DNA from: a virus | Lineage: Duplodnaviria > Heunggongvirae > Uroviricota > Caudoviricetes | Length of the DNA: 64,000 nucleotides | IMG/VR virus record: IMGVR_UViG_3300029305_001878 | Coordinates: 1 to 64,000 of that record | Direction: 5' to 3' (one strand) | Part shown: piece by piece, positions 11,761 to 19,509 of the stretch | Layout: each line of letters opens with the position of its first letter | Position numbering within the stretch: the first letter of the stretch is position 1 | Notes under the pieces: model-generated | What the model was told of the DNA's origin: nothing | Seen by the model: only the letters and a program-made list of their open reading frames with translations | Databases searched by the model: none | Program-made: the position numbers and the translations under genes

Positions 11761-13035
11761 ATGCATTGTGGATATATTGTTGAAGTTAAAGAATTGAGAC
11801 CGCATACTAATGCGGATAAATTGCAGATTGCAACTTTTTTTGGATGTGACACTTGTGTAAGTTTGGAAGTTAAGTTGGGAGATATTGGTATTTATTTCCC
11901 TTCTGATTTGCAGTTGAGTGAAAAATATTGTATTGAAAATCATCTTTTGCGCAAATTACCGGATGGAACACCTGATACTGGATATCTAGAACCTGATAAG
12001 CGCAACATTAAGGCTATTAAATTGCGTGGCGAACGCAGTGATGGTATTTTTATGCCTCTAACTTCTCTGTCTTATCTTGGTGATATTAGTGACCTAAAGC
12101 CTGGTATTACTATTGATACTTGGAATGGAGAAGAAATTTGTAAGAAATATATTCCTCGTTCTAATCATACAACTTCCTCTACTGGAAATAACAAGAAGAG
12201 TAAAAAGGCAAAAGTAGAAACTCTGCCTCATTTTGTAAAACATATTGATACTCCGCAGTTGAGATTTTGTCAGAATCTTTTTAAGCCCGGCGATGTAATT
12301 TGTCTAACTGAAAAAGTTCACGGAACGAGTTCTAGAAATGCAAATACTATTTCTATTACTCATAAGAAGAATATTTTTGACAAAATTTTCCATCGAGCAG
12401 GTAAGGAAGTATCTAATTATAAGTATGTAATTGGTACTCGTAGAACAGTTGTTGAAAGTAATACTGGCGGTTATTATGGAAGCAACGAATTCCGTATTAA
12501 CTGGGGTAAGGAATTTGAGGGGAAACTTCACGCAGGTGAAGAAGTATTTGGTGAAATCGCAGGTTTTACTGAAACTGGCACTCCTATTATGGGAATTGGC
12601 AACAATGAAAAAACCAAAGATAAGGCTTTTATTAAAAAGTTTGGTCCTACTACTACTTTCTCTTATGGATGTTCTGGAAATAAATCTCGATTCTTTATTT
12701 ATCGTATGACTTATACTTCTCCCGATGGTTATACTATTGAATATCCTTGGGATTTGGTAAAACTGCGCGCCGAGCAGATGGGGTTTGAAGTAGTACCTGA
12801 ATTGGATAGATTCATTTATACTACCGAAGAAGATTTTATGAATAGAATTAATAAGTGGTTGGATATTCCTTCTACTATTGACGGTTCTCATATTATTGAA
12901 GGTGTAGTTGTGCGTGCGCTTAACGCTCCTGGATTCCGAGTAGCGAAAGAAAAGTCTTATAATTTTAAAATTATCGAAGGTATTATCAAAGAATCTGCTG
13001 ATGCACCTGATATGGAAGAAGCAGAAGAAATTTAG
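11761..13035 (+). CDS. RNA ligase-like nucleotidyltransferase (Rnl2/T4 RnlB-like)
   Basis: 424 aa. Lysine motif I LTEKVHGTS (compare Rnl2 KIHGTN). GC-richer; no TAG. Confidence 0.45.
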   Translation: MHCGYIVEVKELRPHTNADKLQIATFFGCDTCVSLEVKLGDIGIYFPSDLQLSEKYCIENHLLRKLPDGTPDTGYLEPDKRNIKAIKLRGERSDGIFMPLTSLSYLGDISDLKPGITIDTWNGEEICKKYIPRSNHTTSSTGNNKKSKKAKVETLPHFVKHIDTPQLRFCQNLFKPGDVICLTEKVHGTSSRNANTISITHKKNIFDKIFHRAGKEVSNYKYVIGTRRTVVESNTGGYYGSNEFRINWGKEFEGKLHAGEEVFGEIAGFTETGTPIMGIGNNEKTKDKAFIKKFGPTTTFSYGCSGNKSRFFIYRMTYTSPDGYTIEYPWDLVKLRAEQMGFEVVPELDRFIYTTEEDFMNRINKWLDIPSTIDGSHIIEGVVVRALNAPGFRVAKEKSYNFKIIEGIIKESADAPDMEEAEEI

Positions 13036-13048
13036 GAGATAAAAAATA

Positions 13049-13303
13049 ATGGATAATCCTACTATTATTATTAATAATACAAATACAAATACAAACAATA
13101 ATATTCCAGTTGGAACGGCTAAAAATAAATGGATAGCATTTTTCTTGTGTTTGTTTCTTGGTTATATTGGCGCTCATAGATTTTATGAACATAAAATTGG
13201 AACCGGTATCTTGTGGCTTTGTACTGGCGGTCTTTGTGGCATCGGTTGGTTAATTGATTTAATTATTATTCTTACTAAACCTACAAATTATTATGTTTAT
13301 TGA
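13049..13303 (+). CDS. TM2-domain membrane protein
   Basis: [33 protein letters not shown] matches the TM2 consensus. Confidence 0.5.
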
Positions 13304-13315
13304 GGAGGTTGAATA

Positions 13316-13501
13316 ATGAGTCTTTGTGGTAATTGTCCAATCCCTTACGAAGAATGCCTTCCAGAAGATGAAGATTGCCATTATCAATGCTCTTATCAAG
13401 ACGCAGTATATAAGATTCAACAGGCTTATTGGAGCCTGTTGAATCGATATGAAAATCTTGAAAGACAATATGAGGAATTAAAAAATGAAAAACATAGATG
13501 A
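13316..13501 (+). CDS. Small Cys-rich hypothetical
   Basis: RBS gaggagg; 61 aa. Confidence 0.35.
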   Translation: MSLCGNCPIPYEECLPEDEDCHYQCSYQDAVYKIQQAYWSLLNRYENLERQYEELKNEKHR

Positions 13502-13748
13502 AAAAGAACTTAATAAAAAGGCTAAAAATCTTACGATTTTAAGTGCTATTGGGTTTATTTTTATTATTATTTGTTTCGTCTGTTGGCCTAAAATTATTGG
13601 TGCTATTATTTTAATTACAATTTTTTGTTGTATAGGTAAAATTCTTTTTGGTGACATAATTTATCCAATGATTCAAGAGCATCTTTATAAAAAAGAATTA
13701 AAAGAACAAAAAGAAAATGATGAAGAAGAATGTGTGTATTGGTATTAA
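13485..13748 (+). CDS. Small membrane protein
   Basis: Two hydrophobic segments; overlaps the previous stop. Confidence 0.35.
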   Translation: MKNIDEKELNKKAKNLTILSAIGFIFIIICFVCWPKIIGAIILITIFCCIGKILFGDIIYPMIQEHLYKKELKEQKENDEEECVYWY

Positions 13749-13763
13749 TACACACATTTTTTT
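13731..13763 (+). terminator. Rho-independent terminator
   Basis: tgtgtgtatt ggtatt aatacacaca then ttttttt. Confidence 0.55.
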
Positions 13764-13792
13764 ATTGATTTTTAATAAAAAATATGATATAA
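13764..13792 (+). promoter_or_regulatory. Sigma70-like promoter, consensus copy
   Basis: ttgatttttaataaaaaatatgatataat. Confidence 0.6.
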
Positions 13793-13825
13793 TATTTATA
13801 CAAAATGAGAAAGGAAATTGATACT

Positions 13826-17727: not shown

Positions 17728-17729
17728 AA

Positions 17730-17759
17730 TTGATTTTTTATAAAAAATATGATATAATA
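17730..17759 (+). promoter_or_regulatory. Sigma70-like promoter, consensus copy
   Basis: ttgattttttataaaaaatatgatataat. Confidence 0.6.
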
Positions 17760-17771
17760 TTTATATAAAGA

Positions 17772-18053
17772 TTGAAAGGATTGGTATTTATGGGTAAGCA
17801 TTTTGAAGAACATAGTTTCTGGTGTATTAAGTGCGGGAACCGCGGTTTGCCTCTTATGCGTAACCAGGGTCATCAGCACGGAAGATTTCACCGCAAGAAA
17901 CTTTATTGCACAACTTGCCGAACCGAAATGAATCACGTTGAATGTAAGAGTTTGGAAGATATTGAACTATTTAAAGAGGCTTTTGAAGGAGGATATTTTA
18001 AAGATGAAGCAGAAGAGCCTGTACCTGTTAGTGGGATGTCCTGCATCTGGTAA
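17772..18053 (+). CDS. Small zinc-ribbon protein
   Basis: CIKCGN...CTTCRTE...C. Overlaps the next gene start by ~50 nt in another frame. Confidence 0.3.
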   Translation: MKGLVFMGKHFEEHSFWCIKCGNRGLPLMRNQGHQHGRFHRKKLYCTTCRTEMNHVECKSLEDIELFKEAFEGGYFKDEAEEPVPVSGMSCIW

Positions 18054-18477
18054 AAGCACTTTCTTGAAGCGCACTATGCCTTTGAGTGAAAATGCCCGAG
18101 CAATTTCTCGTGATGATATTCGCTTTGCTCTTGTAGCAGAAGATGAACCATATTTTTCTCGGGAAGATGAAGTATTTGATTGCTTTATCAATGAAATTAG
18201 AAAATCTTTAAATGAATATGATACAACTTATGTAGATGCAACGCATATTACAGAAGCATCAAGAAAAAAGATAATCAATAGAATTAATCCTAAAAATGTT
18301 GATGTATATTGTATTGTATTTGATACGCCTCTTGATGTTTGCATTGAACGCAATTTGATGCGCGTGGGGCGCCGGCAAGTACCTGAAAAGGTAATTCGTA
18401 ATATGAAAAATTCAATGACCGACCCAAAAAATGATAAATTTCAATATAAAGATATTATTTATATTAAAGGAGAATAA
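18004..18477 (+). CDS. P-loop kinase (polynucleotide-kinase/AAA_33-like)
   Basis: LLVGCPASGKSTF Walker A. Size and layout resemble the Pnkp kinase domain. Confidence 0.55.
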   Translation: MKQKSLYLLVGCPASGKSTFLKRTMPLSENARAISRDDIRFALVAEDEPYFSREDEVFDCFINEIRKSLNEYDTTYVDATHITEASRKKIINRINPKNVDVYCIVFDTPLDVCIERNLMRVGRRQVPEKVIRNMKNSMTDPKNDKFQYKDIIYIKGE

Positions 18478-18480
18478 AAA

Positions 18481-18768
18481 ATGACTAATATTTCTGTTAA
18501 GGTTGACCATCCTATTGTTACTGAACTCGAAAGACTGCATTATGAATTTGAATCTTATCGAGCCATTATTGGTTATGTTCTGACGCAAGATATGGATATT
18601 TCTGCACCTGTTTTTAAGAATTATCAGAATGAATTTGCTGAAGTTAATAAGAAGTATATGGCCGCGAAGGATGTACTGACTAACGAGGTTGTTAAGGCGC
18701 AGTACCCTGATGCTATTAACTGGTCTATGGACTTTGCTAATGCTAGTGTAAATATTACTCTTCCTTAA
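18481..18768 (+). CDS. Hypothetical protein
   Basis: 95-aa ORF, GC-richer, no TAG. Confidence 0.4.
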   Translation: MTNISVKVDHPIVTELERLHYEFESYRAIIGYVLTQDMDISAPVFKNYQNEFAEVNKKYMAAKDVLTNEVVKAQYPDAINWSMDFANASVNITLP

Positions 18769-18795
18769 TTTCTTTTAAAGAAAGGATGAAATTAA

Positions 18796-19509
18796 ATGAT
18801 TTATTTTACTAGTGATACTCATTTTTCCCATAAAAATATTCTTGCTTATGAACCTATCACTCGTCCTTTCAAAAATATTGATGAAATGAATGAATATATC
18901 GTTGAACGCTGGCAAGAAAGAATTACTGATGAAGATGAAGTTTATGTTCTTGGTGACTTCTTTATGGGACAGTTGGATAAAATTCAGCCTATTCTTGATA
19001 GATTGCCCGGTAAAATTCATTTAATTCGTGGTAATCACGACCAGAAGAATAGAATTAAGATTTATGAAGAAAATGGTATTGATGTAAAAGATTTAGATTA
19101 TATTAAATATAAAGGTAGATTTTTTATTCTTTGCCATTTTCCTAATAATAATGAAGAATTTATTCGTATGATTACGCAGGATAATAGTGAAGTTGTTTGG
19201 TTGTATGGACACGTTCACTCTAATGCTCCTTATGGTTATCACGATGGAACATTCCATATTGGTTGTGATACTAATAATCTTACTCCTATTTCCATTGAAG
19301 AAGTTTGGAAACAGTGTTGGCCTGAAGAAATTATGACTCCAGAAGTCAAAGAATATAAAGAAAAGGCTGAAAGAGAAGAGGAAAGAGATTGCGCTCGATG
19401 CGAATATTTTCAAGGATGTTTGCGCGGACGCTTGGCGCAAGTAAAAAATGAAAAAGTAATTTGTAATAAATATTCAAGAGAAATTAAAGACGGTGGTTTT
19501 TACCACTAA
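18796..19509 (+). CDS. Calcineurin-like metallophosphoesterase (Pnkp phosphatase-like)
   Basis: FTSDTHFSH...VLGDFF...GNHD motifs. RBS aaaggatga. Confidence 0.6.
   Translation: MIYFTSDTHFSHKNILAYEPITRPFKNIDEMNEYIVERWQERITDEDEVYVLGDFFMGQLDKIQPILDRLPGKIHLIRGNHDQKNRIKIYEENGIDVKDLDYIKYKGRFFILCHFPNNNEEFIRMITQDNSEVVWLYGHVHSNAPYGYHDGTFHIGCDTNNLTPISIEEVWKQCWPEEIMTPEVKEYKEKAEREEERDCARCEYFQGCLRGRLAQVKNEKVICNKYSREIKDGGFYH

Follow-up and report, generated by a model that had tools for sequence, protein, structure and literature searches.

End healing and end sealing of RNA are best described in a few systems. Phage T4 encodes its own healing-and-sealing set, in which a HAD (DxDxT) phosphatase is fused to the kinase in Pnkp and sealing falls to Rnl1 and Rnl2. 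In Clostridium thermocellum Pnkp (CthPnkp), kinase, 2',3'-phosphatase and ligase modules form one polypeptide with Hen1 as a partner, and in Capnocytophaga gingivalis a Pnkp1-Rnl-Hen1 complex keeps healing and sealing enzymes separate. Ligases of the Rnl5 type carry out Mn2+-dependent sealing of 3'-OH/5'-PO4 nicks, and Runella HD-Pnk is the comparison case for fusions of a kinase with an HD domain. Burroughs and Aravind (2016) reportedly compiled a comparative-genomic catalogue of RNA-repair module shuffling and are said to have noted calcineurin-like phosphatases in phage RNA repair, with TROVE and SPFH/Band-7 proteins as possible scaffolds. As a phage counter-defence, healing-and-sealing RNA repair is established; its modular shuffling has been catalogued via comparative genomics, and calcineurin-like phosphatases in phage RNA repair, together with TROVE and SPFH/Band-7 as possible scaffolds, were noted earlier (PMC7824862). 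Here we analyse a 64,000-nucleotide stretch of a Caudoviricetes genome (IMG/VR record IMGVR_UViG_3300029305_001878, positions 1 to 64,000), hereafter the window, in which an RNA ligase, a kinase with a small Zn-ribbon partner and two metallophosphoesterases (MPPs) probably constitute a phage pathway for RNA end healing and end sealing built of separate proteins. The genes concerned are:

11761-13035, + strand: ATP-dependent RNA ligase (PF09414 RNA_ligase, E 4e-6; PHROG 968 'RNA ligase', E 2.6e-60)
16999-17727, + strand: PPP, a lambda-phosphatase/CthPnkp-type binuclear metallophosphoesterase (Metallophos, E 3.6e-12; PHROG 246 NinI-like, E 1e-27)
17791-18053, + strand: Zn-ribbon protein (C-x2-C ... 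C-x2-C), overlapping the kinase start by 50 nt
18004-18477, + strand: 5'-OH polynucleotide kinase, P-loop, Pnk clade (AAA_33, E 4.5e-19; TIGR04075, E 8e-20)
18796-19509, + strand: MPP2, an aq_1665-type metallophosphoesterase (Metallophos_2, E 4.4e-10; PHROG 547, E 1.5e-48)

The four enzyme genes are real, lie on the + strand where the original prediction, made from the letters alone, had placed them, and keep their catalytic motifs. That prediction described a split toolkit resembling bacterial Pnkp rather than T4 Pnk, which holds for the two healing modules but not for the ligase, the fusion or Hen1. CthPnkp provides the closest solved relative of the kinase. Its 3' healing enzyme, like PPP, is a binuclear metallophosphoesterase, the two sharing all eight active-site residues, and the chemistry of CthPnkp (kinase, 2',3'-phosphatase and ligase) is the one that the genes here suggest. 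Unlike CthPnkp, which is one polypeptide, the window distributes these activities over separate genes in at least three transcription units, as the prediction of a split set had implied, and it has an Rnl5-like ligase in place of the Pnkp ligase module with its Hen1 partner. No Hen1 or Pnkp-type ligase domain was found in about 50 window open reading frames (ORFs) scanned, a survey that did not cover small ORFs exhaustively, and the sole methylase among them is an N6_N4 DNA methylase; we therefore limit the resemblance to Pnkp to its two healing modules. With T4 the window shares a phage-encoded healing-and-sealing set and a homologous kinase (1ltq, E 4.4e-6) with an RN..R...VP lid, but it lacks the fused HAD phosphatase and carries an N-terminal OB domain on its ligase rather than the C-terminal helical domain of Rnl2. 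The Capnocytophaga complex resembles it in keeping healing and sealing enzymes apart and in Pnkp1 as a kinase relative (4xrp, E 4.3e-6; PMC4411300), and differs in the fusion of kinase and phosphatase within Pnkp1 and in the presence of Hen1. Also close are Bacillus phage Thrax5 and Lysinibacillus phage LC76P1, where a ligase of the same family (~43-48% identity) precedes a kinase of the Pnk type that bears a 2',3'-phosphoesterase module; there the module is an HD phosphohydrolase fused to the kinase, and in LC76P1 an RlaP nucleotidyltransferase gene lies between ligase and kinase, whereas the phosphoesterases here stand alone and no RlaP was detected in the window. Beyond the parts of CthPnkp, the window has a second, aq_1665-type MPP, a Zn-ribbon protein and a flotillin, and what is new relative to all these systems is the constant aq_1665-type partner, the Zn-ribbon and a flotillin in the same operon.

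In the proposed pathway, MPP2 and/or PPP would open and remove the 2',3' phosphate to leave a 3'-OH, the kinase would phosphorylate the 5'-OH, probably together with the Zn-ribbon protein encoded just upstream, and the ligase, adenylylated on K185, would then seal the 3'-OH/5'-PO4 break. The steps may follow in this order, the two phosphoesterases may divide the labour between them, and the enzymes may be held in a physical complex or on a flotillin scaffold. The substrates are most likely RNAs, probably tRNAs, cut by host defence nucleases, which would make the pathway a viral counter-defence.

The kinase, earlier described as Pnk-like, bears a polynucleotide-kinase signature made up of P-loop, RxxxR lid, general-base Asp and acceptor-binding Arg. 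It is 157 aa long and consists of the kinase domain alone; its ATG at 18004 is preceded by GGAGGA, a ribosome-binding site located within the 3'-terminal part of the Zn-ribbon gene. Among NCBIfam models, the kinase best matches bacter_Pnkp TIGR04075 in its N-terminal kinase (only model positions 7-138 of 851), and among solved structures the CthPnkp kinase domain comes first (4gp7, E 2.9e-13), followed by T4 Pnk, PSTK and Pnkp1. A dNMP or thymidylate kinase family, which the original prediction had weighed as an alternative, appears nowhere among its Pfam, NCBIfam and PDB matches, and the enzyme is not a dNMP kinase. Invariant or nearly so in 22 homologues are the P-loop (G11...G16-K17-S18), D37 and R40 (SRDxxR), D78-A-T and the lid (R116-N117-x-x-R120-x6-P127), and in pairwise alignment these residues, with the presumptive general base D37, line up with those of CthPnk, whose Asp38 has been named the general base in structural work (PMC3902929).

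The overlapping upstream ORF was listed from TTG 17772, and its start is most likely ATG 17791. Residues C18, C21, C46, C49, R30, H40, K42, N54 and E57 are invariant in 29 homologues of the Zn-ribbon protein, for which Pfam has no family and which is represented by 198 clusters at E up to 1e-3. In three of these representatives (P0306, P0396 and P0423) the ribbon, at residues 3-70, is fused to an AAA_33 kinase. Based on these fusions and on its position, the Zn-ribbon protein is a candidate for a previously unnoticed partner of polynucleotide kinase.

MPP2, previously called calcineurin-like, belongs to the Metallophos_2 family with intact binuclear MPP motifs: D7, H9, D54, N80, H81, H114, H139 and H141 are invariant in 28 homologues. 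Its sole close solved relative is the uncharacterised Aquifex protein aq_1665 (1xm7, profile E 8.6e-28), on whose family we found no paper, and the phosphodiesterases GpdQ, YfcE and MJ0936 come next. No fusions were seen among close MPP2 homologues. The protein ends in a Cys-rich tail of ~45 residues (window 19360-19509; C-x2-C ... C ... C ... DGGFYH) that has no counterpart in most family members and is shared with another lineage (L046, 10501-11256).

Association of these genes was evaluated in 34 ligase-anchored and 80 kinase-anchored viral loci from IMG/VR, whose ORFs were annotated by iterated profiles seeded from window proteins; collapsing the kinases at 60% identity reduced the 80 loci to 56 clusters. 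As the loci are related to each other and not phylogenetically independent, the figures that follow are counts, not probabilities. In 49 of 80 loci (35 of 56 clusters), MPP2 follows the kinase no more than 1.5 kb downstream; a Zn-ribbon ORF sits directly upstream of the kinase in 34 (23 clusters), and the ligase within 10 kb in 46 (35 clusters). PPP is present in 30 kinase loci (22 clusters), flotillin/SPFH in 13 (7 clusters), DUF2828 in nine (nine clusters) and a major-vault-protein (MVP) homologue in eight (six clusters). Ligase, kinase, PPP and MPP2 occur together in 24 of the 80. The phosphoesterase tied most tightly to the kinase is MPP2, not the lambda-like PPP. A typical gene order is ligase ... 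(PPP)-Zn-ribbon-kinase-MPP2-(SPFH), and the same block is found on the long metagenomic contigs L125, L126, L127, L039 and L041. Flotillin follows MPP2 in its 13 loci and in L125 and L126 too, and DUF2828 accompanies kinase and MPP2 in its nine loci and in L039 and L127. Thg1 and NADAR are further members of the block in L125, as are a nicotinamidase and an AAA_28 kinase, besides DUF2828, in L127. In L039, DUF2828, kinase and MPP2 occur with a gene for an RNA_ligase domain (214 aa), ahead of which lies a 129-aa ORF, and NMNAT and PnuC genes are adjacent. Because the grouping recurs across so many viral contigs, it does not represent chance adjacency, and the conserved synteny supports the earlier view of ligase, kinase and phosphoesterases as one toolkit, whose function we infer.

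The position after the kinase is a phosphoesterase slot, since different phosphoesterase folds fill it in different phages, as the HD fusions of Thrax5 and LC76P1 illustrate; such a pattern of swapped parts has been described for RNA repair systems (PMC7824862, section 3.4.9). Neighbours in relatives are suggestive, though only suggestive, of tRNA as the substrate: Thg1, RlaP and tRNA arrays occur beside the module. Arrays of tRNA genes are found near it in 19 of 60 loci scanned and lie directly upstream of kinase and MPP2 in L051, L066 and L096, with a CUA-anticodon tRNA in L051 and L066. In Phage Phass-1, kinase and MPP2 lie ~4 kb upstream of an array of more than 20 tRNA genes that includes tRNA-Sup-CTA.

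The lambda-phosphatase-like PPP enzyme at 16999 was correctly recognized: in a search of solved structures with its family profile, lambda phosphatase is the best match (1g5b, E 7e-27), followed, at full length, by the CthPnkp phosphatase domain (4j6o, E 1.4e-16). Invariant or nearly so in 24 homologues are D6, H8, D32, R36, N59, H60, H130 and H174, which correspond one-to-one to the active-site residues of the CthPnkp phosphatase (D187, H189, D233, R237, N263, H264, H323 and H376; PMC3675462). No HAD domain is present, in agreement with the expectation of a metallophosphoesterase as in CthPnkp rather than the T4 type. PPP is a candidate 2',3'-cyclic phosphodiesterase and 3'-phosphatase. The kinase and PPP match PHROG 8238 ('RNA ligase', 737 positions) at positions 2-141 and 175-250, respectively, which is a Pnkp-like layout.

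Of the other explanations, the one that survives best, if still improbable, is that PPP is a Ser/Thr/Tyr protein phosphatase for host takeover and a mere neighbour, with MPP2 alone healing RNA 3' ends. In favour of this, PPP matches lambda phosphatase and PrpA/PrpB-type protein phosphatases best, a separate promoter precedes it, and only 11 of 80 loci have it no more than 1.5 kb upstream of the kinase, as opposed to 49 of 80 for MPP2 downstream. However, PPP is found in 30 of the 80 kinase loci, some of them without NAD+ genes (L044, L049, L054 and L065), no terminator separates it from the kinase unit just downstream, and all CthPnkp active-site residues are kept. Moreover, cleavage of 2',3'-cyclic nucleotides is a property of lambda phosphatase itself, and both it and CthPnkp hydrolyse nucleoside 2',3'-cyclic phosphates (PMC2190708).

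The ligase comprises an N-terminal OB domain (about residues 1-130) and a nucleotidyltransferase (NTase) domain (about residues 155-410). The OB part matches PF21189 at residues 6-100, and the N-terminal 100 residues match the OB domains of PHA02142 and of Naegleria gruberi RNA ligase (NgrRnl). Searching the PDB with the single sequences of ligase and PPP yielded nothing useful, and family profiles were needed. With an AlphaFold2 (AF2) model of the ligase built on 21 homologues (pLDDT 82.6; disordered linker at residues 134-150), Foldseek returned NgrRnl first, in whole-protein alignments (E ~4e-15), and then TbREL1 and T4 Rnl2 over the NTase part only (E 1e-7 to 1e-5). The arrangement is that of Rnl5 ligases, in which an N-terminal OB domain is joined to a C-terminal adenylyltransferase domain (PMC5397189). 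The N-terminal half (residues 6-191) matches TIGR02306 (RNA_lig_DRB0094; E 1.2e-14) with 54 bits against a cut-off of 151.15; because this score stays below the curated cut-off, we treat the ligase as a distinct OB-NTase subfamily (PHROG 968, PHA02142-like). Likeness to the Rnl5 enzymes DraRnl and NgrRnl consists of the domain order, the best full-length Foldseek match (NgrRnl) and partial matches to TIGR02306 and PF21189, whereas the 424 aa with inserts exceed their ~340 aa and motif I reads KxHG, as in Rnl2, instead of KLDG. At E up to 1e-3 the family exceeds 6800 database proteins, with lengths of ~425-440 aa across the best 120. Annotation as RNA ligase is attached to it in 366 phage records, most of them from large Bacillus phages and actinophages.

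Motifs I, III, IIIa, IV and V of the ligase occur in order and on the expected strands of the AF2 model. KVHGTS (residues 185-190, nt 12313-12330) is motif I, in which K185, H187 and G188 are invariant among the 21 homologues (K185-V-H187-G188-T-S). It is followed by motif Ia (R227-R228-T229), motif III (E260 ... F-G264-E265-I-A-G), motif IIIa (Y314-R315), motif IV (E380-G-V-V-V-R385, with the fifth position variable in the family) and motif V (A395-K396-E-K398, with K396 and K398 invariant). In motifs III, IIIa, IV and V, which the original prediction had feared might be lacking, E260, G264, E265, Y314, R315, E380-G-V-V-x-R385, K396 and K398 are invariant in the 21 homologues. Read directly, these motifs resemble KIHGTN, AKRT, VFGEFAG, EGYVLK and RVAIKCK of T4 Rnl2, with KVHGTS corresponding to KIHGTN, FGEIAG to FGEFAG and RVAKEK to RVAIKCK; the T4 sequence used was confirmed at 100% identity. 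An hhalign comparison of the ligase family with T4 Rnl2 sets GTRRT...VFGEIAG over AKRT...VFGEFAG, a local stretch covering motifs Ia and III, at a probability of only 0.5% and serves as illustration only. The description as Rnl2-like is accordingly apt for the catalytic motifs but not for the architecture, which is Rnl5-like: the protein ends ~25 residues past motif V and has no Rnl2 C-terminal all-helical domain, on which nick sealing by Rnl2 depends, and the added domain is the N-terminal OB. In one relative (L001), whose ligase is 64% identical to that of the window, an RNase_T/DEDDh exonuclease gene (9089-9907) lies directly upstream of the ligase gene, a pair that echoes the Deinococcus operon of DraRnl and the DEDDh-like DR_B0095 (PMC5397189).

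The same enzymes could act on DNA, with kinase and phosphoesterases cleaning 5'-OH/3'-phosphate breaks in phage DNA and the Rnl5-like ligase sealing nicks with 3'-side ribonucleotides, for example in replication or after host nuclease attack. T4 Pnkp and CthPnkp have been described as enzymes of nucleic acid repair in general (PMC3592404), loss of DraRnl renders Deinococcus sensitive to ionising radiation, and the same authors leave undecided whether Rnl5 and Rnl2 repair DNA or RNA (PMC5397189). Furthermore, the repair island adjoins replication and recombination genes. We nevertheless regard action on DNA as unlikely: the phage has its own ATP-dependent DNA ligase (34269-35387), the neighbours in relatives (RlaP, Thg1 and tRNA arrays) are RNA-directed, and Rnl5 enzymes strictly require RNA on the 3'-OH side (PMC5397189).

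Transcription signals delimit the units in which the repair genes are organised. The exact promoter-like motif TTGATT-N17-TATAAT, with a T/A-rich, nearly fixed spacer, occurs 11 times in the window as compared with 0.16 expected, always on the + strand; seven copies fall within the first 18 kb and several stand directly 3' of a terminator hairpin. Strong hairpin-plus-T terminators were identified at ~10280-10330, 11123-11160, 13724-13763, 16911-16942 and 20988-21019. Signals and neighbouring genes are:

2981, 6392, 7776, 11159, 13765, 16944, 17730, 29146, 38147, 40550 and 52082, + strand: copies of TTGATT-N17-TATAAT
11159-11187, + strand: promoter of the ligase unit, directly after terminator hairpin 11123-11160
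13049-13748: small membrane-protein ORFs, inside the span of the original prediction, which did not mention them
13724-13763, + strand: terminator of the ligase unit, an 18-pair stem followed by a T-run
13765-16942, + strand: NAD+ salvage operon including promoter and terminator
13765, + strand: start of the NAMPT-unit promoter (TTGATT-N17-TATAAT)
13805-15574, + strand: NAMPT, NAD+ operon
15574-16032, + strand: DarG-like macro domain, NAD+ operon
16035-16889, + strand: NadE, NAD+ operon
16911-16942, + strand: terminator of the NAD+ operon
16944-16972, + strand: promoter of PPP (TTGATT-N17-TATAAT)
17730-17758, + strand: promoter of the Zn-ribbon-kinase-orf95-MPP2-flotillin unit (TTGATT-N17-TATAAT)
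18481-18768, + strand: orf95, 95 aa, with no family match and close relatives only
19528-20985, + strand: flotillin/SPFH (Band-7), last gene of the kinase operon, with Band_7 and FloT matches, starting 18 nt past MPP2
20988-21019, + strand: terminator of the kinase unit, fold z-score -3.9

Since the promoter at 17730 and the terminator at 20988-21019 bound them, the genes from Zn-ribbon through kinase, orf95 and MPP2 to flotillin are read as one promoter-to-terminator unit, and the repair genes as a whole sit in neighbouring units that share one promoter class. A paralogue of orf95, likewise without family match, is encoded 7.6 kb downstream (26091-26381).

The NAMPT-macro-NadE operon inserted between the ligase and the kinase unit is a neighbour outside the repair chemistry; like the Zn-ribbon gene and orf95, it lies inside the span of the original prediction but went unmentioned there. 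Its macro domain is nearest to DarG, a DNA ADP-ribosyl glycohydrolase (E 6e-11), and no NMN adenylyltransferase was seen in the window. Kinase and phosphoesterases might instead belong with these genes and act not on polynucleotide ends but on nucleotides or on immune signals derived from them (ADP-ribose derivatives, cyclic nucleotides, nicotinamide riboside). NAMPT, macro domain and NadE do lie between ligase and PPP, NAD+ genes occur beside the module in L067, L081, L085, L087 and L127, MPP2 of Staphylococcus phage 812 is ~4 kb from NAMPT, and in Lysinibacillus phage LC76P1 NAMPT is next to a ligase of the same family; as noted above, the solved relatives of MPP2 farther out are phosphodiesterases. 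We consider this link highly doubtful, as the Pnk-specific Asp and Arg are kept, the kinase relatives are polynucleotide and tRNA kinases and not NadR/AAA_28 riboside kinases (L127 has a separate AAA_28 gene), NAD+ genes occur in only 5-6 of 80 kinase loci compared with 49 of 80 for kinase-MPP2, and a promoter and a terminator of its own delimit the NAD+ operon. That functionally unrelated early genes are merely co-located in a hypervariable accessory region is very improbable: homing endonucleases and several independent promoters do give the region a mosaic character, and the MPP2 family is very widespread in phages, in many without a detected kinase neighbour, but the order and adjacency of Zn-ribbon, kinase and MPP2 persist to ~30-45% kinase identity in 35 of 56 clusters, fusions of Zn-ribbon with kinase and of kinase with HD exist, and in 58% of loci the ligase is no more than 10 kb away, as opposed to ~13% expected by our own estimate for a single-copy gene in a 150-kb genome.

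Several observations weigh against the reading of these genes as one RNA repair pathway. The ligase has its own transcription unit, ~5 kb from the kinase with the NAD+ operon in between, and among the ligase-anchored loci only nine of 34 have a kinase within 10 kb; the kinship of the loci tempers the linkage counts as well. Lambda-type phosphatases double as protein phosphatases. Rnl5 and Rnl2-type ligases seal duplex nicks, and the sole genetic study of an Rnl5 enzyme points to post-irradiation DNA repair (PMC5397189). The aq_1665/PHROG 547 family, of uncharacterised function, spans 1764 phage records, and no kinase was found near the aq_1665-family gene of Kayvirus 812. Within the window, ARAGORN detected no tRNA, including no suppressor tRNA, and Rfam gave nothing at gathering thresholds and two weak, implausible matches at E up to 1. 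Y-RNA or tRNA-like genes in the intergenic folds were also considered and rejected, the folds being terminators.

The island is flanked by two further proteins of interest:

3045-5495: MVP homologue
8718-10274, + strand: DUF2828+DUF7788 protein (PHROG 850, labelled 'RNA-binding protein'), outside the span of the original prediction

The vWA MIDAS motif of the DUF2828 protein (D316-x-S318-x-S320) is invariant, and this protein is a possible accessory or scaffold, as the flotillin is a candidate scaffold. Kinship of the DUF2828 protein with TROVE/Ro60 was not established: its sequence has no PDB match, its profile gives a weak vWA match, and a single-sequence AF2 model (pLDDT 38.9) was unusable. 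MVP genes lie a few kb upstream of ligase, Zn-ribbon, kinase and MPP2 in L001-L004, L053, L060, L077 and L091; phage MVPs have been reported earlier in two gut phages (bioRxiv 10.1101/2023.11.10.566534). A reading of the island as a defence system was dropped, as PADLOC gave no match for module proteins and only DarG, for the macro domain. With low probability, the repair enzymes would be one arm of a larger scaffolded, ribonucleoprotein-like apparatus that includes flotillin, DUF2828/vWA protein and MVP homologue with the NAD+ genes in between, and which in TAG-recoding phages would guard the phage's own tRNA arrays, including the CUA suppressor tRNA that the code switch requires, from host anticodon nucleases, the aq_1665-type MPP and the Zn-ribbon being dedicated RNA-end-healing parts.

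The window is AT-rich (GC ~27-40% in 2-kb bins), and its + strand carries nearly all long ORFs. It encodes PhoH, type II topoisomerase subunits, DNA ligase, Sak4, helicase and primase, as well as a split DNA polymerase and anaerobic NrdD, and represents the early/replication region of a large phage that infects an anaerobe. The source is a large uncultured gut-type phage. The phage collection holds no nucleotide-level relative of the window; the nearest deposited relative, judged by the MPP2 protein, is Phage Phass-1, which has been placed in a 'Caudoviricetes code 15 clade' (PMC10607447). Gaps without a standard-code ORF are filled by ORFs holding 2-12 in-frame TAGs:

7936-8670, 23020-24324, 27973-28758, 36046-37044 and 43469-44164: TAG-bearing ORFs
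46536-47885, 50576-51934, 57270-57854, 60255-61202 and 63348-63833: further TAG-bearing ORFs

Recognisable domains (guanylate kinase, DHH/RecJ, RuvC, radical SAM, GIY-YIG) span the TAGs in most of these ORFs; the guanylate-kinase-like gene, at 57270-57854, is separate from the repair kinase. In this phage TAG serves as a sense codon, most likely for Gln (genetic code 15): at conserved positions it aligns with Gln of TAG-free paralogues, for example in DGEQHF and YIGQT. Across 8718-20985 (~3760 codons), the block of repair and NAD+ genes, there is no internal TAG, and the sole TAG is the stop codon of the ligase at 13033, where reading it as Gln would extend the protein to 13056. The absence of internal TAG from the repair genes fits their translation by unmodified host machinery early in infection. 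Homing-endonuclease-like genes are numerous, with three HNH/DUF2726-type paralogues and four GIY-YIG genes, several of them with TAG codons:

5549-6391, 7936-8670, 10354-11127, 36046-37044, 43469-44164, 47972-48628 and 60255-61202: homing-endonuclease-like genes

Some of these lie within split replication genes: for example, the RecJ-like parts 46536-47885 and 48723-49259 are separated in this way, as are the two halves of the DNA polymerase, 52145-54643 and 55768-57144. At 6452-7765, an IceA-like gene (PF05315, E 9e-27) precedes an N6/N4 DNA methylase, and together they look like a phage-borne restriction-modification pair.

A probable role in RNA repair would provide functional context for Rnl5-type ligases, whose physiology has been described as uncharted (PMC5397189), and suggest a function for the aq_1665/PHROG 547 phosphoesterases, which are very widespread in phages. 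It would also add a new Zn-ribbon partner of polynucleotide kinase, backed by fusions, to a repair set that large uncultured phages commonly carry, some TAG-reassigning phages among them. If the substrates are indeed tRNAs, the pathway would be relevant to the way in which phages with a switched code maintain functional suppressor tRNAs when the host attacks.

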